Source: an uncultured bacterium | GTDB lineage: Bacteria; Krumholzibacteriota; Krumholzibacteriia; JACNKJ01 | Length of the DNA: 64,000 bases | NCBI GenBank assembly: GCA_963695095.1 | Contig: CAVOFT010000001.1 | Coordinates: 2,176,001 to 2,240,000 of the forward strand | Direction of reading: 5' to 3' | Shown: piece by piece, positions 28,116 through 55,608 of the stretch | Numbering within the stretch: position 1 is the stretch's first letter | How the letters are laid out: every line of letters starts with the position of its first letter | The notes under the pieces: generated by a model | Seen by the model: the letters and a program-made list of their open reading frames with translations, nothing else | Database searches by the model: none | What the model was told of the DNA's origin: nothing | Program-made: the position numbers and the translations under genes

Positions 28116-29249
28116 TCAGCCGCTGGCCGCGCGCGCGGCTGGACGATGGCCGAGGGCCTCAGCCTGGCGGTAACGCTGCCGCGCCGCCTCCGCCTGACCG
28201 AGCTGGTCGTGGATGATACCGAGGTAGTAGTGGCTGCGCGCGTCCTCCGGATGCAGCTCGATCACCTTGAGGAAGCAGGGCAGGGCCTGTGCGAACTCGC
28301 CCAGGTTCACCCGGCACAGGCCGAGGTAATACTTGATGCGCGAATCGGCGGGTTCCGCCAGCTCGGCCCGCTCGAGCTCGGCCAGGGCCTTCCGGTGGGC
28401 CCCCAGCCGCAGGTGGCAGAGCGCCGCGTAGAAGCGCGCGTCGCCGAAGGGCGGGCGCAGGGCCAGCACGGCCTCGAATTCGGCCAGGGCCTCGCCGTAG
28501 CGGCTGCTATTGTAGAGGGCCAGCCCCAGGCTCATGCGGCCCTCGACGCTGTCGGGGGCCAGCTCGACCGTCTTGCGGAAGAGATGGATGGCCTGCTCGT
28601 ACTCGCCGCGCTCGCCGTAGAGCGCCCCGAGATTCAAGTGCCCCATCGCATTGCTGGGATCGAGCTGGATCGCCCGCTTGAAGTGCAAGATGGCCTCATC
28701 GCGCTCCCCGCGGCGGTCGAGGCTGAAGCCGAGGTTGGTGTGCGCTTTGGCCAAGCGGGGATCGAGGCCGAGCGCTCCGCGGAAGGCCTCCTCGGCCTCG
28801 AGCGTGCGATTCTCGCGCAGCAGGGTGCAGCCGAGCTGATAGCGGCTCTCGGCCGCGTCCGCAGGCATGGTCAGGGCCAGGCGATGCAGCTCGTGGGCCT
28901 GCTCGAAGCGGCCGGCCAGGCTGTGCAGACGCGCGGCCTGGTTGAGCGGGCGCGGCGACTCGGGCTCGCGCCGGCGCCAGGCGGCGGCCAGGCGCAGCCC
29001 TTCCTCGAAGAGCTCCGCCCGGAAGCTCGCCTCGATGAGTTCGCTGTAGCTTTCGGCCGGCAGGGAGAGCGGGTCGGAAATCTCCTCGAAGAAGGCCTCG
29101 AGCTCTTCGCGCTCGCCGCGGGCGATGCGCTCGTCGAGCCAGCGGCCCACGGCCTCCGGATCGTGCGCGGCCTCCGAGCAGAGTGCGTCGATGAGCGTCC
29201 GTCGGCGCGAGCGCCGCTGCAACTTGCGGTACCAGTTCCAAGGACCCAT
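28116..29249 (-). CDS. Cytoplasmic tetratricopeptide repeat protein
   Basis: Several TPRs (AHTNLGF...A..HFKRAIQLDP; HLNLGALY...YEQAI..FRK..ELAP); no signal peptide. Confidence 0.9.
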   Translation of the reverse strand: MGPWNWYRKLQRRSRRRTLIDALCSEAAHDPEAVGRWLDERIARGEREELEAFFEEISDPLSLPAESYSELIEASFRAELFEEGLRLAAAWRRREPESPRPLNQAARLHSLAGRFEQAHELHRLALTMPADAAESRYQLGCTLLRENRTLEAEEAFRGALGLDPRLAKAHTNLGFSLDRRGERDEAILHFKRAIQLDPSNAMGHLNLGALYGERGEYEQAIHLFRKTVELAPDSVEGRMSLGLALYNSSRYGEALAEFEAVLALRPPFGDARFYAALCHLRLGAHRKALAELERAELAEPADSRIKYYLGLCRVNLGEFAQALPCFLKVIELHPEDARSHYYLGIIHDQLGQAEAARQRYRQAEALGHRPAARAASG

Positions 29250-29289
29250 GCGCAGCCCACCTCTCCTGCTTGCCGGTCTGAACGGCGGC

Positions 29290-29319
29290 AGGATAGGTGG
29301 GCCTTCAAAATTCGGTCAA
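29290..29319 (-). promoter_or_regulatory. sigma70-like promoter of TPR gene
   Basis: TTGACC, 18 nt, TATCCT. Confidence 0.6.
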
Positions 29320-29334
29320 GACAATGTTAGGCGA

Positions 29335-29826
29335 CTAGTCGTCACTACCCAGCGGTTTGTCGCGCAGGGGCGACAGGAGTCCGCCCGAACGCCAGCCGAA
29401 GGGCGCGAGGGGATCGTAGAGACCGCCGCCCTGCCCCACCTCGAGGCGCAGGAGGAAGTTGTCGCCGGGTCGCCAGTCGAGCGCGGCATAGGGCAGCACG
29501 AGGCGGGCGCCGCCATCCTCGCGGCCCCACTGCTGGTCACCGGGTGAGAAAGCGAGACCGAAGCGGGCGTTGAAGTCGAGCTGCGCGCCCAGGGGAATGC
29601 GCAGATCGCGGGTCAGGAGGCCGAGAGAGCGACTCTCGCCGCCGCCCCAGGACTGGCTGTAGCTGAGCGCGCTGGGCCCCCATTGCAGGCGATCGAGCCC
29701 AAGGCCCAGTTGGGGGCTGCTCGAGATGGGCGCCACCAGGGCGAGCGGGTTGGCGGCCGTCTCGGCCAGGGCCGGCTGAGCCAGCGCGAGCAGAAGCAGG
29801 CAGGCGATGAAGCGGCGAGTCGACAT
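29335..29826 (-). CDS. Exported hypothetical protein
   Basis: Signal peptide MSTRRFIACLLLLALAQPALA; alternating beta-strand-like segments. Confidence 0.65.
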   Translation of the reverse strand: MSTRRFIACLLLLALAQPALAETAANPLALVAPISSSPQLGLGLDRLQWGPSALSYSQSWGGGESRSLGLLTRDLRIPLGAQLDFNARFGLAFSPGDQQWGREDGGARLVLPYAALDWRPGDNFLLRLEVGQGGGLYDPLAPFGWRSGGLLSPLRDKPLGSDD

Positions 29827-29864
29827 GGTCATCCCTTCGGCCGGCGCAGGCCGGCGTCAATGCT

Positions 29865-30233
29865 TCAGTCGGTGAGCAGTTCCCGGACCTTGGCCTTCAG
29901 CGGGTCGAGGTCCGAGGACTTGACCAGGTAGGCCTCCGCCGACCACGAGGCGAAGTCATCCTTGTAGCTGTGGTAGGCGCTGCTGATCAGCACCCGCAGG
30001 CCGCGGTGGACCTGCATCACTTCCCGCAAGTAGCTCAGGCCGTCCTTGCCCGGCAGCTCGATGTCGAGGATGAGCAGGTCGGGGCAGGCGCGGGCCAGGA
30101 CCTCAGCCGCCTCCTCCGCTGAGGCCACCGCCTCGACGAGGTAGCCCTCGTCCCGAAGCTCCTGGCTGTAGAGGGTGCGGATGCTGGCCTCGTCGTCGAC
30201 GACGAGGATTCGCTTGCCTGCGCTCGCGGTCAC
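29865..30233 (-). CDS. Single-domain response regulator receiver
   Basis: ILVVDDE, DLLILDIELPGKDG (phospho-Asp), SAY, YLVKS; AGGAGG RBS before GTG. Confidence 0.92.
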   Translation of the reverse strand: MTASAGKRILVVDDEASIRTLYSQELRDEGYLVEAVASAEEAAEVLARACPDLLILDIELPGKDGLSYLREVMQVHRGLRVLISSAYHSYKDDFASWSAEAYLVKSSDLDPLKAKVRELLTD

Positions 30234-30253
30234 GGCGGCCTCCTGACCGCGGG

Positions 30254-30282
30254 AGCCTAGTTGCGCTTCCCCGGGCTGTCAA
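30254..30282 (-). promoter_or_regulatory. sigma70-like promoter of response regulator gene
   Basis: TTGACA, 17 nt, TAGGCT. Confidence 0.72.
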
Positions 30283-30288
30283 GCGCCG

Positions 30289-31971
30289 CTACTCCAGAGG
30301 CACCAGCTCGCCATCGCGGAGCGCGAAGCGCATCCCCGCGCCGGCGGGTCGCGACGGCGCACTGGGAGCGCGCCCCGCCGCCACCGGCGCCGACTCGGGA
30401 GAGGCACCGGCCTGCGCCTCGCTGGCCATGCCGCGCGTGGCCGGGATGCCGGGCGCTGCTTCGCGGATGGGAGCCGCCGTCGCCATCCAGCCGGGCGCGC
30501 TGCCCCCCTCCGCCGAGAGGCCGCCGCTCGGAGGCGCCGGCGGAGCCGGAGCGTCCTCGAGTACGAGACGCAGAACCAGCTCGCCGCCGCTCAAGGCGCT
30601 GCGGGGAATGCGCAGGGTGAATGGCTGCGAGGCCCCGACCGGGGCCGGCGGCGCGGCGTGCTCCCCCCGACTAGCCGGCGGCGCCGCGGCCGCCCGCTCG
30701 GGCGGCGCAGCGGGGCCGCTGCCCTCAGGCGTGGCCGCGGTCGGCGGCATCGAGGCCCAGAGCGCCACCGACGGCGGGGGCGCTGCGCTCTCGGTCGGCG
30801 AAGCGACGGGCGGCGGCGCCGAATCCATCGCCGCGGGCGGGATTGGCACGGAGGGCGCCTGCAGCGGCGGCTGCGAGGCCCAAGGCGCTACCGGTCGGCT
30901 GGGGGCCGGCCGCGGTGCCGCGCTCGGCAGCTCCTCGAGCTCGACGATTTCAGGCACCACGCGGGACATCGGCACCGGCGGCGGCGAGGTCCCAGCGGTC
31001 ATGCGCTCCAGGGCCGAGGCCCCGGGCGCCGGCGGCGCGGCCTTGGGCGGGCTCGGCAAGGGTAGCGTATCGGCGAGGGAGCGCAGCGGCGAGGCCTCGA
31101 TGGAGGTCTCCACCTCGCGCAGGGCTCGGCGGACATCGCCGGCCTCCATCAAATCGGCGATCGGCGTGCCCGGGCTGGGGTGCGGCGTCCGCAGTTCGCC
31201 AGGCGTCAACTCGACGACGCGCGGATCGGGCAGGTGGTCGAGGTTGAGGCCGGAGCGCGGCGCGGGCGGCTCAGGACGCTGCGGCGCGGATGTTGCCAGA
31301 TCCCGCGGAGGCAGCGGCGCGGGCGGCGTCGAGCGGCTCGGGCTGGCGCTGGGGGCGCTGCGCAGGGACTCGCCGAGTTCCTTCTCGACGAGGGCGCGCA
31401 GCCGGGGCCGCAAGTGCTCGGTCACGCCGAGCAGGGTCTCCTGCACCCCTTCGCCGCGCGGGGCGACGGCGCTGAAGCTGGGCACCTGCGCCGGATTCAG
31501 GGCCTGCTCGAGTTCCTGCACGCTGAGCACGTCGGGCAGGTCGCGCTTGTTGTACTGGATCACCCAGGGCAGATCCTCGAGCTTGAGGTTCATGTCCGCC
31601 AGGTTCGAGCGCAGGTTCTCCAGGCTCTCGAGGTTCTCCTCCATCTTGCCGCGCTGGCTGTCGGCCACGAAGACCACGGCGTCGACGCCCTTGAGCACCA
31701 GGCGCCGCGTCGCGTTGTAGTAGACCTGGCCTGGCACCGTGTAGAGCAGGATGCGCACGTTGAAGTCGAGAATGGAGTCGCCGCTGAGCGGCAGCAGGTC
31801 GAAGAAGAGCGTGCGGTCGGTGCGCGTCTTCATCGAGATCATCTTGCCGCGCTGGTCTTCAGGCACCTGTCGGAAGAGCACTTCGAGATTCGTCGTCTTG
31901 CCGCTGAGCCCCGGGCCGTAGTAGACGACCTTAGCGCTGACTTCCTGCCCTGCACGGTTGATGAGAGCCAC
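30289..31971 (-). CDS. MglA/SofG-family small Ras-like GTPase with long Pro/Ala-rich C-terminal extension
   Basis: KVVYYGPGLSGKTTNL (G1), TDRTLFFD (G2), YTVPGQVYY (G3), FVADS, QYNKRDL (G4); ~360 further low-complexity residues. Confidence 0.93.
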   Translation of the reverse strand: MALINRAGQEVSAKVVYYGPGLSGKTTNLEVLFRQVPEDQRGKMISMKTRTDRTLFFDLLPLSGDSILDFNVRILLYTVPGQVYYNATRRLVLKGVDAVVFVADSQRGKMEENLESLENLRSNLADMNLKLEDLPWVIQYNKRDLPDVLSVQELEQALNPAQVPSFSAVAPRGEGVQETLLGVTEHLRPRLRALVEKELGESLRSAPSASPSRSTPPAPLPPRDLATSAPQRPEPPAPRSGLNLDHLPDPRVVELTPGELRTPHPSPGTPIADLMEAGDVRRALREVETSIEASPLRSLADTLPLPSPPKAAPPAPGASALERMTAGTSPPPVPMSRVVPEIVELEELPSAAPRPAPSRPVAPWASQPPLQAPSVPIPPAAMDSAPPPVASPTESAAPPPSVALWASMPPTAATPEGSGPAAPPERAAAAPPASRGEHAAPPAPVGASQPFTLRIPRSALSGGELVLRLVLEDAPAPPAPPSGGLSAEGGSAPGWMATAAPIREAAPGIPATRGMASEAQAGASPESAPVAAGRAPSAPSRPAGAGMRFALRDGELVPLE

Positions 31972-32161
31972 GCTGCACCTCGTTCTCGCGTTTCAGGTCG
32001 GTGTCCACGGACACCGCCTGCGTTCCGATCGCACCGGCCAAGGGCCCAGGAGGGCGTCGCCGCCAGCGGCCGGCCTTGCTCAGGAGGAGGGAATGCAAGA
32101 TCCGTTCTCGCAAGGGCCCGAGCGCGCACGCGATGTCGCGTTGGGCGGACGCGCTGCAAGT

Positions 32162-32177
32162 CGGCGCAGATCTTGCA
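32162..32177 (+). promoter_or_regulatory. sigma54-like -24/-12 promoter motif
   Basis: CGGCGC-AGATC-TTGCA: GG-N10-GC spacing, upstream of the 32254 ORF. Confidence 0.4.
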
Positions 32178-32253
32178 AATCCGAAGCCGCGCCTGCCTGC
32201 GCGGGATGGCCGAGGCACGCAAGCCCCACCCTGGCAACGAGGTATTGAGGCCG

Positions 32254-32700
32254 ATGGCGGAGACCCGGAAAGTCGTGGCGGAAATGTTCTCCCGGTTCTT
32301 GAACATCGAACTGGGCGAGGAATCCGCCGAGCGCCTGGTCGCCCTCGTCGACAAGGTCGAGAGCAGCATCGACGGCGATCTCGACCTGAGCACCGTCCAG
32401 GGCCGCAACACCCTCAAGGTGCTTCTGGGCACCTTGCTCGCCTACGGCTGGGGCATCGGCATGCACCCCTACCACAATCCCGATCAGGACCTGGACGGCC
32501 GCCTGCTCGAGGTGCGGGCGAGCAAGGACATCCTCGTCACGCTCAAGGACCTCAAGGCCCTGCGCTACCTGAAGAAGGATCAGTACGGCCGGGTGAAGAA
32601 GGCCCTCTTCGAGCCGGATCAGAACGCCCGCGTGCGCAGCCAGATCGACGGCCTGCTGGGCGACATCCACTCGAGCAAGTGGCAGGAAGAGGAGTTCTAG
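32254..32700 (+). CDS. Hypothetical cytoplasmic protein (148 aa), divergent from the MglA-like gene
   Basis: Genome-typical codon bias and normal amino-acid composition (MAETRKVVAEMFSRFLNIELGEE...); GAGG RBS; no family recognised. Confidence 0.8.
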   Translation: MAETRKVVAEMFSRFLNIELGEESAERLVALVDKVESSIDGDLDLSTVQGRNTLKVLLGTLLAYGWGIGMHPYHNPDQDLDGRLLEVRASKDILVTLKDLKALRYLKKDQYGRVKKALFEPDQNARVRSQIDGLLGDIHSSKWQEEEF

Positions 32701-33551
32701 TCCGCGTCGCGCCGCAGGGTGAGCAGGACGACGCGACCACCTTCCCGATAGTCGACCCGATCCACCAGCTCGCGCATCAGGAGCACGCCGCGGCCGCCGC
32801 CCTGACGCAGGCCGGCAGCGCTGAAGGGATCGGCCACCTGCTGCGGATCGAAGCCGGCGCCGGGATCCTCGATGCGCACGCGCAGGCGCCGAGGGCCGAA
32901 ACGGGCGACAACGCGCACTTCCTTGCCGGGATCCAGGGCGCAGCCGTGGCGGATGGCGTTGACGAGCGCCTCGTCCAGCGCCAGGGGCAGGGCCTCGGCC
33001 CAGACGCGGGGAGGGAAGCCGTGTTCGCGGGCGAGCCGGCACAGGAAGGCGGCCGCCGGGGCGACAAGGCGCAGTTCGGCCGGCAGGCGGAAGGCGACCC
33101 GGCTGCGGACCCGGCGTTCGAAGTCGGGCAACCGGCGATTCAGGGGCAGCCTGCGTTCGGACTCGGCGAAGAGCAGCTCCAGGTCCAACCCGGTGAAGGG
33201 CGGACCCAGAACCTCGTGCGCGCCCCGGCTCAGGAGACGGCGCCAGCAGCGCTCGTCGCAGGCGGGCAGCAGGATCACGAGCCGAGCACCCGCGGCGGTC
33301 AGGGCAGCCAGATCGCCGGCCGGCGGCAAGGACTCCTCCCCGTCGGCAGCGAGCAGGACGCCGAAGGGAGCCGCCGGCAAGCACTCGCTCCACTGCTCGG
33401 AAGCGGGCAGCGGCTGGAGGCGAGCGCGGGGCGGCCCGATCTCCGCCATCGCCTGGGCAGCCAGGACCGGGTCCCAGGCCCAGAGGAAGAGCGGGAAGCC
33501 AGGCGGAGCCGTGGCCTCAGAAGAGTGGCTGGCCGTCGGCGACGATCTCAT
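32697..33551 (-). CDS. RsbW/SpoIIAB-type anti-sigma/Ser kinase (HATPase_c_2) fused to a degenerate receiver-like domain
   Basis: LALDEALVNAIRHG, IEDPGAGFDP, GGRGVLLMRELVD; N-terminal GAHEVLGPPF resembles GAxDYLxKPF; start uncertain. Confidence 0.82.
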   Translation of the reverse strand: MRSSPTASHSSEATAPPGFPLFLWAWDPVLAAQAMAEIGPPRARLQPLPASEQWSECLPAAPFGVLLAADGEESLPPAGDLAALTAAGARLVILLPACDERCWRRLLSRGAHEVLGPPFTGLDLELLFAESERRLPLNRRLPDFERRVRSRVAFRLPAELRLVAPAAAFLCRLAREHGFPPRVWAEALPLALDEALVNAIRHGCALDPGKEVRVVARFGPRRLRVRIEDPGAGFDPQQVADPFSAAGLRQGGGRGVLLMRELVDRVDYREGGRVVLLTLRRDAD

Positions 33552-34041
33552 TGAACGCATCTCTGAAATGGGATGAGCTTCGGGCGACATCCTCGCCCAC
33601 TTTATCGACATAGAGACGCCAAGCCATGCTCAGCTCGGCTCGGAATTCCTGGAGCAGGCGCCCCTCGGCCAGCGCGCGATCGCGGCGCTCGCGCCGCCCG
33701 GGGCCCTGCAGGACGCTCTCGGCCAGCGCCCTTGCGAAGCGCTTCGCGCGCCGCGCCTCCTGGGGACTCGACGCCTCGCCGCTTGCGCCCCGCGTCGGAA
33801 TCGCCGCGGGCGGAGAAGGTGCCTCTCCCGGCGGGGGCGTGGCCGCCGGCGGTAGCACCGTCTCGCCCTGGGCAGCAATTGCCGCCTCCGGGGCCGCCGC
33901 GGCGCCACCGGGCCGCCAGCGCAGGTGATAGCCGCGCTGACAGCTCGGGCAGCGAACGTGCAATTCGCCTTTTTCCATCAGGATAGGAGGAAGCTCGTAA
34001 GTACTTCCACATCCTGGACAGCGAAAGGTCTGAGCCCCCAT
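33517..34041 (-). CDS. Zinc-ribbon (MJ0042-like) protein with RomX-like C-terminal helical domain
   Basis: CPGC...VRCPSC; Pro/Ala linker; AKRFARALA...EL....LY...V......F..AFNEIV, resembling Myxococcus RomX as recalled. Confidence 0.75.
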   Translation of the reverse strand: MGAQTFRCPGCGSTYELPPILMEKGELHVRCPSCQRGYHLRWRPGGAAAAPEAAIAAQGETVLPPAATPPPGEAPSPPAAIPTRGASGEASSPQEARRAKRFARALAESVLQGPGRRERRDRALAEGRLLQEFRAELSMAWRLYVDKVGEDVARSSSHFRDAFNEIVADGQPLF

Positions 34042-34080
34042 GCAGCAACCGTCCTGAGCCCCGAAGGCTCCAGGGGTGAC

Positions 34081-34096
34081 AGCAATCGGCATGCCT
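34081..34096 (-). promoter_or_regulatory. sigma54-like -24/-12 promoter motif
   Basis: Minus strand AGGCAT-GCCGA-TTGCT, GG-N10-GC, ~40 nt upstream of ATG 34041. Confidence 0.5.
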
Positions 34097-36290: not shown

Positions 36291-37976
36291 CTAGGGCGCG
36301 GTGGCCTCACCGGATAGCTCGCCATCCTCGAGAGCGAGGATGGGGAAGTGCTCGCCCAGGAGGTGGCGCAGCTCGAGGCGATCCGGGTGATCGGCCACGA
36401 GCGGCGCCAGCAGAGCCCTCGCCTCCTCAGCTCGTCCCTGGTTGCGCAGGGCGAGCGCGAGCGCGAGTTCGGCCTCCAGGTAGCGAGGGGCCAGGGCCAG
36501 CGCCTGGCGATAGTCCGCCTCCGCGCGGGAGTAGTCGGCCCGCTTGAAATGGAGGTCGCCGCGCAGCTTGAGCAGATCGGGGAAATCGGGGTGGGCGGCG
36601 AGGGCCGGGGCCAGCAGGGCTTCGGCCTTGGCGACGCGGCCCAGCCGCAGCTCGCAGCGCAGGCGGCCGCGCAGCGCATACAGACTCGCCGGCGCCAGCT
36701 CGAGGGCCCGGCTGAAGGCGGCCAGGGCGGCCTCCAGATCCCCCCGCGACAGCAGGGTCTGGCCCAGGAAGGCCTGCAGAGCCGCGTCGCCGGGGTGGCG
36801 CTCCTGCAGGCGCCGGAAGTGCGGGTCCGCGCTCTGCCACTCGCCCCGCTGGGCGTGCAGCAGCGCCAGATCCAGCTCGGCGGCGCCGAGCATGGGGCTC
36901 TTGCTCAGGGCCTCGCGCAGGAGGCGCAGCGCCTCCTCGTCTCGGCCTTCGAGATGCCGCAGCAGGCCGAGCAGGTAGCGCGCCTGGCTGGATTCCCCGC
37001 GGCGCTCGAGCAGCTCCTCCAGCAACAGGGCCGCCTCCTCGTGGCGCCCGAGCTGGAAGCGGGCCTGGGCGAGATAGAGCAGCAAGTCGCTGCCCTCGCC
37101 GCCCAGGCTGCGCGCGTAGGCGAGCGCCTCTTCGGCTTCCAGGGCCCGGCCGGCCTTCAGCAGGGCGAGCCCGAGGAAGTAGGAGGCCTCCATGAAGCGC
37201 GGATTGACGGTCAGCGCGCCGCGCAGGGCAGAGATCGCCTCCTCGGTGCGTCCGCTCTTGAAACGGGCGAGGCCAAGCTGGCACTGGATGTCCGCGTAGT
37301 GCGGCTTCATCGCCGCGGCGCGCTCGAGCAGGTCGGCAGCCAGGGGGTGGTTGCCCAGGTTGAACTGGGCGATGCCCTCGCTGTAGAGCTCGCGGAACTC
37401 GGCGCCGCTCTCCAGCAGCTCCAGCACGGGTCCCACCTCGGGCAGGACCGTCTCGCGTTCCTTCAGGTGCACGAGCAGGAAGCGGTTGACCTGGATGGGG
37501 ATCTCCGACTGCAGGGTGGCCGCCTGCCGCAGCTCGCGCCGGGCGCCCTCGCCGTCGCCGCCGGCCTCCAGGGCGACGGCCAGGAAGCAGCGCGCTTCGA
37601 TGTAGTCGGGATTGATCGCCAGTGCCCGTTCGAAGCAGAGCAGCGCCGCCTCGCGCTGGTCGCCCATGAACAGGGCTACGCCCAGGCAGTACTGGATGTC
37701 GGGAAAGCTGGGGGTCTCCTGCAGGGCCCGCTCCAGATGGGCGCGAGCCTCTTCGTAGCGCTCGGCCTTGAGCAGGGTGCGACCGATGTTCGCATGGGCT
37801 TCGGCCGCATAGAAGATGCCGAGCCGGTAGGTGGTGCTGCTCTTGGCGGCGCCGGCCACAGCCGCCTCGAAGCGGGCGATGGCCTCCTCGAAGCGGCCCT
37901 CGTTGTACAGGGCGATCCCGGCGCTGTAGTCCTCGTCGCGACGGCCGCCGAATAGACGCCTCAGCAGCGAGGGCAT
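36291..37976 (-). CDS. Large cytoplasmic TPR protein directly downstream of ftsZ
   Basis: Repeated P.F/YPD/AD..LG...AL.INP.Y/F.EA TPR units; starts 9 nt after the ftsZ stop. Confidence 0.9.
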   Translation of the reverse strand: MPSLLRRLFGGRRDEDYSAGIALYNEGRFEEAIARFEAAVAGAAKSSTTYRLGIFYAAEAHANIGRTLLKAERYEEARAHLERALQETPSFPDIQYCLGVALFMGDQREAALLCFERALAINPDYIEARCFLAVALEAGGDGEGARRELRQAATLQSEIPIQVNRFLLVHLKERETVLPEVGPVLELLESGAEFRELYSEGIAQFNLGNHPLAADLLERAAAMKPHYADIQCQLGLARFKSGRTEEAISALRGALTVNPRFMEASYFLGLALLKAGRALEAEEALAYARSLGGEGSDLLLYLAQARFQLGRHEEAALLLEELLERRGESSQARYLLGLLRHLEGRDEEALRLLREALSKSPMLGAAELDLALLHAQRGEWQSADPHFRRLQERHPGDAALQAFLGQTLLSRGDLEAALAAFSRALELAPASLYALRGRLRCELRLGRVAKAEALLAPALAAHPDFPDLLKLRGDLHFKRADYSRAEADYRQALALAPRYLEAELALALALRNQGRAEEARALLAPLVADHPDRLELRHLLGEHFPILALEDGELSGEATAP

Positions 37977-37985
37977 GGGTGCCCC

Positions 37986-39302
37986 CTAGTCGTTTTGCTT
38001 CCGAAGAAAGGTCGGCACTTCCAAGTCCTCAAGGGCCACCCCCATCAGATCCTGCCGGGCCTCTTCACGCATGGCCGCCACTTCGCGGCTCAACTCGCGC
38101 TCAACTTCGCTGCCACCGGGGAACTCCGCCGCCGGCTCCGCCTCGGCCAGCGACTCCCGCTCACCTGGCGCAAACGCGCCTGAGGGCGATCCCTCCGGCA
38201 CGATCTCGATGATGCGCGAGCCCGCCCCGGCGCCCGCCGCCGCGGCCAGCGCGCGCGGTGCCCGGCTGGCGGCTACCGCCGCCGCCGCGGCCGCCGCGGC
38301 ATCCCGCCTCGCCTCCGAAATCCGCTTTTCGCCGAAGCCCGTGGCGATCACGGTGATGCGCAGTTCATCCGTCAACGCGGGATCCAGCACGGTGCCGAAG
38401 ATGATGTTGGCGCTGTCGCCCACGCTCTCGGTGATGAGGTCGGTGGCCGTGGTCACTTCGCGCAGGGTCAGCGAATCGCTGCCCGTGATGTTGATCAGCA
38501 CGCCCTGGGCGCCGGCGATGTCCTGCTCCTGAAGCAAGGGACAGCTGATGGCGGCCCGGGCGGCCAGCTCGGCGCGATTCTCGCCGCGCGCGCTGCCCGT
38601 GCCCATCAGGGCCGGCCCCATGCCGGCCATGATGCTCTTCACATCGGCGAAGTCGAGGTTGATGAGGCCGGTCACCGTGATCAGGTCGCTGATGCCCCGC
38701 GTGGCCTGCAGCAGCACGTCGTCGGCGATGCGGAAGGCTTCGGCGAAGGGGGTGTCCGGATCGACGACCTCGAAGAGGCGCTGATTGGGAATCGTGATCA
38801 GCGTATCCACTTCGGCGCGCAGCGCGGTCATGCCCTCCTCGGCCACGCGCATGCGCTGGCGGCCTTCGAAGCTGAAGGGCTTGGTGACCACGCCCACCGT
38901 GAGGGCCCCGCTGGCGCGGGCCAGGCGGGCCACGGCGGGCGAGGCGCCCGTGCCGGTGCCGCCGCCCATCCCCGCGGTGACGAAGACCATGTCCGCGCCG
39001 CGCAGCATCTCCTCGATGCTCTCGAGGTCCTCCTCGATGGCGGCCTTGCCCACACCCGGATCGCCGCCGGAGCCCAGGCCCTTGGTCAGCTTGCGTCCAA
39101 TCTGGATGCGATGGATCGCCTTGCTGGCGTAGAGCACCTGCGCATCGGTGTTGATATTGATGAAGTCGACGCCGACGAGGCCGGCATCGATCATGCGCGC
39201 GACGGCGTTACCGCCTGCGCCCCCGACGCCGACGACCTTGATCGAGGCGGCGTCGGAGAAGTCCGAGTCGAAGTCGAACTTCACCCTTGGCATATCGGAC
39301 AT
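37986..39302 (-). CDS. ftsZ: Cell division protein FtsZ
   Basis: [32 protein letters not shown]-terminal VPTFLR. Confidence 0.99.
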
Positions 39303-55179: not shown

Positions 55180-55608
55180 CTAGAACACGAGGCCGCTCCC
55201 CCTGCTCTCACCCTCTTGCGGAACCAACGAAAAGGCGGCGGAAGTGTGACGGATGCCCATGGCCGCACTCGCCTCTGAAGGGTAGACGGGAATGGAACGG
55301 GGAACGTCTCCCGCCGCCAGGATCTCCATCAGATAGAAGCTGGGCGAAGCCAGGACCAGCTCGCCGCCCGCGCGGCGCAGCTCGCGATGCAGGGCGAGCA
55401 GCAGTTCCAGCACCCGATAGCGGATGTGGATGGTGCCCGCCAGGTCCACCACGAAGCCGCGGCTGCCGGCGGCCAGCGCGCCGCGCAGCGTGCGCGCGAG
55501 TTCGCTCTGCATGCGCTCGTCCCACTCGTCGGCGGGACGCAGCAGCAGGTAGTCGCCTCGCTGTTCGCAGATCAGGGCCACGCGTCCATGCTCCTTCGTT
55601 TCTCTCAC
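55180..55608 (-). CDS. STAS-domain (anti-anti-sigma-like) protein
   Basis: [11 protein letters not shown]...[15 protein letters not shown]....IL; located between mraZ and rsmH. Confidence 0.78.

Follow-up and report, generated by a model that had tools for sequence, protein, structure and literature searches.

The stretch of DNA analysed here, hereafter called the window, comprises 64,000 nucleotides from an uncultured bacterium of the Krumholzibacteriota (contig CAVOFT010000001.1, positions 2,176,001 to 2,240,000). Positions 28116-34096 of the window contain seven genes. All of them are real and lie at the coordinates given by an earlier note, which had reported seven genes within about 6 kb and had proposed that they form a signalling module related to the MglA-RomX polarity system of Myxococcus xanthus. 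The genes encode a zinc-ribbon protein that ends in a RomX-like domain, a kinase of RsbW type preceded by a pseudo-receiver, an orphan protein, an MglA-family GTPase with a long C-terminal tail, a single-domain receiver, an exported protein and a tetratricopeptide repeat (TPR) protein. The proteins, the conservation of their genes among relatives and the possible wiring of the module are described below.

Genes and proteins of the locus

All features lie on the minus strand except the orphan gene, which is on the plus strand. Read in the direction of transcription, the minus strand carries recG, the zinc-ribbon/RomX-like gene, the kinase gene, mglA, the receiver gene, the exported-protein gene, the TPR gene and valS. 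The orphan gene is placed between the row formed by the RomX-like and kinase genes and the row that begins with mglA and ends with the TPR gene. It is divergent from mglA, from which a 282-bp gap separates it, and convergent with the kinase gene, with which it shares 4 bp at the 3' ends. The end of the RomX-like gene overlaps the start of the kinase gene in the window and in the loci of two relatives (L007 and L021). Scans for promoters and terminators gave two sigma-70-like sites, before the TPR gene and before valS, based on a consensus that is perhaps unsuited to this lineage, and a single weak site resembling a terminator.

The mglA gene (30289-31971) encodes a protein of 560 residues, in which a G domain (31387-31971, residues 1-195) is followed by a C-terminal tail of 365 residues (30289-31386). 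Residues 1-186 aligned gap-free to M. xanthus MglA (6hjh) with an E value of 2.4e-66, and the G domain matched the MglA of Thermus thermophilus at E 2e-59. The G motifs GPGLSGKT (residues 19-26), TDRT (51-54, containing R53), VPGQ (79-82, containing Q82) and NKRD (141-144) are present, and the P-loop, R53, Q82 and NKRD were invariant across 20 relatives. The earlier description of an MglA-family GTPase with intact G motifs, TDRT arginine and PGQ glutamine is therefore confirmed. With its full-length G-domain homology, P-loop, R53, Q82 and NKxD motif the protein is a member of the MglA family (group 1, Ras superfamily). It departs from the family pattern in its size, 560 residues instead of a single domain of about 195, and in having no nearby gene for a cognate MglB, the GTPase-activating protein (GAP) of the Roadblock/LC7 type. 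The absence of a Roadblock/MglB gene, noted before for the window, holds genome-wide: a search of the entire 3.64-Mb genome (93.5% complete) with the Roadblock/LC7 profile (PF03259) gave no match at E <= 1. The same genome yielded only one gene of the MglA family.

The tail of the GTPase is composed of 22% proline, 19% alanine and 10% serine. Intact proteins from 38 relatives with a complete gene were 339-591 residues long, and every one of them has a tail. The tails of 18 aligned relatives share the motifs ..ALREV.., GRVVxLD and EFITDP, as well as a stretch of about 30 residues near the end. In the window protein the ..ALREV.. motif is found at residues 280-288 and the stretch near the end at residues 451-473 (30553-30621); an extra motif at the end of the tail (residues 547-560) is common to the window and the relative L002. 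The tail is long and disordered, with conserved short motifs.

The zinc-ribbon/RomX-like gene (33517-34041) encodes 174 residues, with the start placed from homologues within an open reading frame (ORF) of 33517-34092. The protein consists of a ribbon with CxxC pairs (33937-34020), a Pro/Ala linker and a C-terminal RomX-like domain (33517-33768). The Zn_ribbon_4 match in the window protein, at E 2.8e-6, falls under the Pfam cut-off, which relatives exceed, and 14 of 18 family members have a match. The ribbon is of the MJ0042 type, and its ZnR profile matched the solved GltJ/AgmX ZnR (7zok) at E 0.011. When the C-terminal part alone was searched, RomX (8ZNA) was the best of 177,635 Protein Data Bank (PDB) sequences, yet with an E value of just 0.13. 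A profile of 18 close relatives (18 of 24 homologues, leaving out the window's own entry and five partial-coverage matches) improved the match to RomX to E 4.2e-5. A family profile, made from the last 84 residues at 30 diverse loci, matched RomX residues 3-75 at E 5.7e-15, and its next-best PDB sequence was no better than E 0.0025. The RomX-like domain fused to a zinc ribbon that had been proposed earlier is a RomX homologue, one that is fused to a ribbon and linker and is not a small stand-alone protein.

According to the RomX preprint, residues R11, R14 and D19 of RomX contact MglA-GTP, while helix 3 and W87 contact the receiver of RomR (10.1101/2024.02.20.581209). Residues R101 and R104 of the window protein (174-residue numbering) align with RomX R11 and R14. 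Helix 1 reads RLARxLVSDIxxYN in most relatives, near the RomX sequence, and RFARALAESVLQ in the window's clade. The best-conserved part of the family is the helix-3 motif ALNEILADGxxxF. It is a large domain family, numbering 3296 representatives out of 1.84 billion at E <= 0.001; 20 of 30 scanned representatives, drawn from the best 150 of the 3296, begin with a zinc ribbon like that of the window protein. A structure search described in the same preprint found the RomX fold beside receiver and zinc-finger domains. Eight metagenomic proteins of 597-987 residues (P0025, P0026, P0027, P0034, P0041, P0042, P0130 and P0132) contain three to five tandem RomX-like stretches, and four of six scanned multi-repeat RomX-like proteins have an N-terminal receiver domain.

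The kinase gene (32697-33560) encodes about 287 residues; the ORF extends to 33611 and the start is likely near 33560. The protein matched PF13581 (HATPase_c_2) at E 4e-25, scoring 88.7 bits against a cut-off of 27.4, and the N box DEAxxNAxxHG, G1 box DxGxGF and G2 box GRG were invariant in 20 sequences (alignment A4). The AlphaFold2 model, also built from 20 sequences, had a pLDDT of 85.2; in it a (beta-alpha)5 domain (residues 24-132) precedes the kinase domain. The five strand-helix units of the N-terminal domain were modelled with a pLDDT of about 90. The pseudo-receiver spans about residues 23-132 and the kinase domain about residues 150-287. The top Foldseek match was the receiver-kinase LvrC (9qih; E 1.1e-14), over the full length, followed by SpoIIAB (2.4e-9) and RsbW (1.5e-8). 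The N-terminal domain has the receiver fold and lacks the phosphorylation residues: the columns of the acidic pair, phospho-Asp, Thr/Ser and Lys are unconserved in alignment A4, the Lys position being P or G (ILLPPF) and the Thr/Ser position a near-invariant Cys, and no PF00072 match was found in this domain. These results agree with the earlier reading of a pseudo-receiver joined to an RsbW-type kinase. Canonical kinase/STAS/phosphatase sets are present elsewhere in the genome. The STAS match nearest to the cluster kinase, at 55264-55566 of the window (minus strand, E 3.5e-9), is about 22 kb from it.

The orphan gene (32254-32700, plus strand) encodes 148 residues, its likely start having been set by homologues at a position that makes it shorter than the longest ORF. 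The protein is highly conserved, with a mean column identity of 67% in an alignment of 27 sequences (A2) and the invariant motifs WGxGMHP, KDIL and RYxKKDxxGRVKxALFEPDQNxR. It occurs, mostly in single copy, in 198 of the 208 phylum genomes and is missing from just one of the 125 good ones (124 of 125). Its family has 804 members, and among 120 listed all are named 'hypothetical protein' and none has a Pfam family. No match was obtained among PDB sequences at E <= 10, in a Foldseek search of the PDB at E <= 0.001 or, in usable form, in the protein atlas, and nothing meaningful was obtained in Pfam even at E <= 10. The predicted model (pLDDT 72.8) has three helices, four strands and one helix in that order. 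A Roadblock-like fold was considered for the orphan and set aside, since this order is unlike the Roadblock topology. In many relatives, genes for a lipid A-type acyltransferase, a GT4 glycosyltransferase and an MFS transporter are found upstream of the orphan on the same strand (L007:11908-15495, L021:11912-15209), and in these relatives the row appears to end with the orphan.

The single-domain receiver (29865-30233, 122 residues; PF00072, E 4.2e-20) keeps its phosphorylation residues, namely a DD pair, the LLILD Asp and the LVKS Lys. Its best solved relative was a generic stand-alone response regulator (3a0r_B, E 2.5e-26) and not RomR, to which it has no particular likeness. The exported protein (29335-29832, 165 residues) has a signal-peptide-like hydrophobic N-terminus and no match in Pfam or NCBIfam. 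The TPR protein (28116-29249, 377 residues) matched TPR_1, TPR_2 and other TPR families with E values of about 1e-36. No signal peptide is visible in its sequence, and it is a candidate cytoplasmic effector. In this genome, genes for PilB/PilT-type ATPases and PilM lie upstream of the window at a distance of 52-63 kb, and flagellin genes are located farther off. The PilB/PilT/PilM genes are type IV pilus candidates, and a pilus or flagellum is a possible target of the module. Outside the cluster, ftsZ and a gene for a 561-residue TPR protein (36291-39302, minus strand) are directly upstream of recG, an order kept in most relatives.

Conservation of the cluster and its GTPase paralogue

Relatives of the zinc-ribbon protein were collected from species-representative genomes. 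Of 251 found, 79 loci were kept, and these come from Krumholzibacteriota, Latescibacterota, one Chitinivibrionia and Gemmatimonadota lineages. The relatives in Krumholzibacteriota and Latescibacterota bear out the placement in the Fibrobacteres-Chlorobi-Bacteroidetes (FCB) group that had been suggested from the window. Loci in which no less than 7.5 kb of sequence follows the RomX-like gene, 48 in all, were regarded as informative. In 36 of these 48 the RomX-like gene is accompanied by both the orphan and a gene of the MglA family, and the full set of orphan, kinase, intact tailed MglA and TPR gene was present in 27. Nine more loci keep the orphan and an MglA-family gene; one of them is without the TPR match only, one (L063) is without the kinase gene only and seven have a degenerate GTPase. 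The degenerate GTPases are 28-36% identical across ten such loci and have lost the switch-1 TDRT motif, and the kinase gene is absent in all seven of the informative loci that carry them. The remaining 12 informative loci have none of orphan, kinase, MglA and TPR. They belong to a group of 16 loci without an orphan match, of which 14 are named as Gemmatimonadota lineages.

The conservation of the cluster is more than chance. A survey of co-localisation across relatives had been named beforehand as a test, with the caution that the clustering could be coincidental, and the conservation of the cluster in 36 of the 48 informative loci answers that doubt. Of the 36 cluster loci with sufficient flanking sequence, 34 have a TPR homologue on the downstream side of the GTPase gene, and of the 29 loci whose tailed MglA is intact, 13 have a receiver homologue (at least 40% identity). 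In tblastn searches the exported protein was seen in close relatives only, with 48-53% identity in L002 and L003 and 39-43% in L088-L091; at its position L021 has a 185-residue ORF with an N-terminal hydrophobic stretch.

The cluster GTPase is one of two MglA types in the phylum. A canonical mglB-mglA pair was found in 62 of 81 good genomes of the phylum, coexisting with the tailed MglA. In 61 of these 62 genomes the Roadblock gene adjoins a short MglA of about 196-210 residues and not the tailed one, as judged from the coordinates. The tailed MglA is located by the orphan. The short protein is the closer of the two to Myxococcus MglA (294.7 bits versus 226.2 bits for the tailed protein). One example of the canonical pair, from genomes G003-G207, is L081, with the Roadblock gene at about 1501-1770 and the short MglA at 1963-2538. 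Within the window's own family no Roadblock match was found in nine of nine genomes (G000, that of the window, included), which have the tailed MglA only, or none. The canonical mglB-mglA pair has been lost in this family, and it is also missing from several genera with a degenerate cluster GTPase. The earlier proposal of a rewired small-GTPase switch was right about its RomX and MglA parts, but the GTPase is a second, tailed paralogue and not 'the' MglA.

Proposed wiring and alternative explanations

There is about an even chance that the cluster represents a lineage-specific signalling module that is conserved in Krumholzibacteriota-type bacteria and uses relatives of the Myxococcus polarity parts in a different wiring, with the zinc-ribbon/RomX-like protein acting as an adaptor. 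In such a module helix 1 of the RomX-like domain would bind the GTP form of the tailed MglA, as in M. xanthus, and the conserved helix 3 would dock on the pseudo-receiver of the kinase, which would replace RomR. The adaptor might thereby link the nucleotide state of the GTPase to an output of serine-kinase or anti-sigma type. The TPR protein would be an effector of MglA-GTP like SgmX, possibly acting on the type IV pilus or flagellar genes. By analogy with GltJ and ZitP, the zinc ribbon may localise the protein or act in self-inhibition. As there is no MglB, GTP hydrolysis would be intrinsic or aided by some further protein. All of the binding steps are ones that we infer, and the earlier interpretation is partly supported. 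Predicted complexes of the RomX-like domain (alignment A3) with the GTP- and Mg-bound G domain of MglA (alignment A5), run without controls, scored 0.23 and 0.20 versus a mark of 0.32 and speak neither for nor against binding. An adaptor role is suggested by the recurrence of RomX-type domains beside receiver-fold proteins, namely RomR, the pseudo-receiver kinase and receiver-GGDEF proteins, and by the finding that the most conserved element of the family, helix 3, is the RomR-binding face in RomX. A link among the parts is also favoured by the conserved gene order, by the overlap of the RomX-like and kinase genes, by the absence of the kinase gene at every informative locus with a degenerate GTPase, by the joint loss of mglA, the receiver gene and the pseudo-receiver domain in sister genomes, and by the receiver domains of four of the six scanned multi-repeat proteins.

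Several observations weigh against this module. At the position of RomX D19 the window protein has S109, with E108 beside it, and most relatives have D. The region of W87, the RomR contact, is missing because the protein ends about six residues past RomX position 76. L063 retains an intact tailed MglA and has no kinase gene. Although the genome has seven STAS and eight SpoIIE matches, none adjoins the cluster kinase. The kinase resembles RsbW and SpoIIAB in its profile and ATP boxes, but no STAS, sigma or PP2C partner gene adjoins it. For this reason the 'partner switching' of the earlier note is used here as a family resemblance and not as a demonstrated pathway. In many relatives the acyltransferase, GT4 and MFS genes lie between the orphan and mglA, and the genomes compared are related and not independent.

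Further observations against the module come from four sister genomes (L088-L091, corresponding to G012, G013, G016 and G014), which belong to sister genera of the window's family. These genomes are 96-100% complete and gave no MglA match at E <= 1e-5. Their loci have the order ftsZ, TPR, recG, RomX-like gene, kinase domain without pseudo-receiver, orphan, exported protein and TPR, with a gap of about 180 bp between the orphan and the exported protein. Their RomX-like gene keeps the R, R and D of helix 1. Since the four MglA-less sisters keep the gene with helix 1 intact, the role of the RomX-like protein is probably not limited to MglA. Judged by these loci, the RomX-like gene, the kinase domain, the orphan and the exported and TPR proteins appear to work without any MglA. 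The mglA gene, the receiver gene and the pseudo-receiver domain are missing together, and these three parts are therefore tied to each other.

These findings bear on a rather unlikely alternative, in which the zinc-ribbon/RomX-like protein would be a general adaptor for receiver-fold proteins with no tie to MglA. Its partner here would be the kinase only, and MglA, the receiver and the TPR protein would form a separate unit. Retention of the RomX-like gene and kinase domain in the sister genomes is consistent with it, as is the finding that no MglA lies within 10 kb at any of the 12 informative loci that lack the cluster. Four Gemmatimonadota loci were picked out of the 16 that had no orphan match; at every one of them a GGDEF gene immediately precedes the RomX-like gene, and the N-terminal part of this GGDEF gene gave weak receiver matches in three of the four (E 3.6e-6, 0.049 and 0.064). 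With 3296 representatives of the domain family at E <= 0.001, many may also sit in MglA-free genomes. However, the kinases of the MglA-less loci also lack the receiver-fold domain, so that the adaptor is retained where the domain on which it would dock has been lost. The only ligands documented for RomX are MglA-GTP and the RomR receiver domain (10.1101/2024.02.20.581209), and all 36 cluster loci with enough flank have an MglA-family gene within a few kb. As an observation on these Gemmatimonadota loci, the RomX-like gene often abuts a gene of about 330 codons with a partial GGDEF match (L019:4662-6178, L033:2392-3836, L060:5526-6979 and L072:8668-10225), and genes for RNase R and lysyl-tRNA synthetase are nearby.

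A second alternative, considered very doubtful, is that the neighbourhood is no more than inherited gene order in a stable part of the chromosome (ftsZ, recG, valS), without shared function. The genes for FtsZ, the second TPR protein, RecG and valyl-tRNA synthetase (ValRS) are syntenic across the same loci, so the conserved order must be partly inherited and is not all functional. FtsZ, the 561-residue TPR protein (TPR561) and RecG stay upstream, RecG in 37 of 43 orphan-bearing loci with at least 3 kb of upstream sequence. At least three transcription directions or units, with only two promoter-like sites, and the insertion of unrelated lipid and sugar genes in many relatives point the same way. 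Against this, the placement of a RomX homologue beside an MglA homologue pairs known physical partners, in a genome with one MglA in 3.6 Mb. The joint loss of mglA, the receiver gene and the pseudo-receiver domain, the disappearance of the kinase gene where the GTPase has decayed and the overlap of adjacent genes also argue against inherited order without function.

It is equally improbable that the kinase is a true anti-sigma or partner-switching kinase with the orphan as its target and with the RomX-like protein and MglA as mere modulators. The N-terminal helices of the orphan would then form a domain like region 2 of sigma factors. The likeness of the kinase domain to SpoIIAB and RsbW fits this reading, as does the orientation of the orphan gene, which always lies tail-to-tail with its neighbour, either the kinase gene or, at loci that lack it, the RomX-like gene. 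A wide structure search with the orphan model matched its three N-terminal helices weakly to sigma factors (ECF-type region 2), which made up 11 of the 50 matches listed, led by ShbA (Z 6.3, rmsd 3.2, 70 residues aligned); but every Z was below 8, a range that the search tool deems possibly meaningless for helical models, no Pfam sigma match was found at E <= 10 in 27 members, the orphan model is itself middling (pLDDT 72.8), and the orphan persists in seven informative loci without a kinase gene.

The conserved module with a RomX-like adaptor is the preferred interpretation. A broader extension of it, which we regard as improbable, is that RomX-type domains may be widespread adaptors that connect a small GTPase to receiver-fold proteins with different outputs. 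The Krumholzibacteriota module would then be a case in which a Ras-like GTPase acts through a kinase or anti-sigma output, with a tailed MglA independent of MglB and with the phylum-wide orphan as a new core part, perhaps as the GAP that is missing or as the target of the kinase.

Comparison with known systems

MglA, MglB and RomR-RomX form the best-understood Ras-like polarity switch in bacteria, and knowledge of it comes almost entirely from one organism. The present results show that true homologues of RomX occur well beyond the myxobacteria, as a rule in fusion with a zinc ribbon, and that an intact MglA can persist without any MglB. Recent results question the functions of the polarity regulators, as stated in a preprint abstract, and an effector role has been raised for RomX in the RomX preprint (10.1101/2024.02.20.581209). 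The module offers testable proteins for two questions, whether RomX is an exchange factor or an adaptor/effector, and how an MglA without MglB is switched off. No literature was found that names MglA with Latescibacter* or, among the papers listed, MglA with Krumholzibacteri*, and none with both 'RomX' and 'zinc-ribbon'; the RomX preprint mentions zinc-finger and receiver fusions, and its structure-search hits may already include this family.

Several parts of the locus resemble the M. xanthus polarity module. These are an MglA-family GTPase with Arg53 and Gln82, a RomX-type domain with the helix-1 arginines, a receiver-fold protein encoded beside the RomX-type gene, as in the pairing of the RomR receiver with RomX, and a TPR protein near MglA that recalls SgmX, which is described as an MglA effector in that organism. 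The locus also differs from that module. The window GTPase has 560 residues with a disordered tail, is a paralogue of the canonical short MglA and has no MglB. Unlike RomX of M. xanthus, the window domain is fused to a zinc ribbon and is without the W87 C-terminal region. The part of RomR as receiver-fold partner would fall to the pseudo-receiver that is joined to the RsbW-type kinase.

The ribbon itself is similar to those of GltJ (AgmX) and ZitP, being a small MJ0042-type CxxC...CxxC ribbon (PF13717/PF13719). In GltJ the ribbon precedes a linker that binds MglA-GTP, and the ribbon recruits MglB, as described in PMC11135422. GltJ belongs to the gliding machine as a membrane protein and has a GYF domain, whereas the window protein has no GYF domain or membrane segment, its ribbon is followed by a RomX-type domain, and its genome has no MglB. 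The cluster kinase shares with LvrC of Leptospira a full-length architecture of receiver and RsbW-like kinase, and its ATP boxes are intact as in RsbW and SpoIIAB. It differs from LvrC and RsbW systems in that its receiver is without phosphorylation residues and no STAS antagonist or PP2C phosphatase is adjacent. The related literature includes a paper on LvrB (PMC13269768).

MglA proteins that stand apart from MglB have precedents. In the survey of Wuichet and Sogaard-Andersen (2014), 59 of 449 MglA homologues are given as without a nearby MglB, and group 1 MglA is reported in Fibrobacteres and Gemmatimonadetes (PMC4316618). The window GTPase is like the orphan MglA GTPases SofG of M. xanthus and MglA of Bdellovibrio in being without an adjacent MglB, as these proteins work without one. 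Bdellovibrio MglA works with a TPR protein and has a P-loop substitution, and the extension of SofG is N-terminal. Unlike either of them, the window GTPase combines a 365-residue C-terminal tail containing motifs with a RomX-type neighbour and a P-loop in which G21 is kept (GPGLSGKT).

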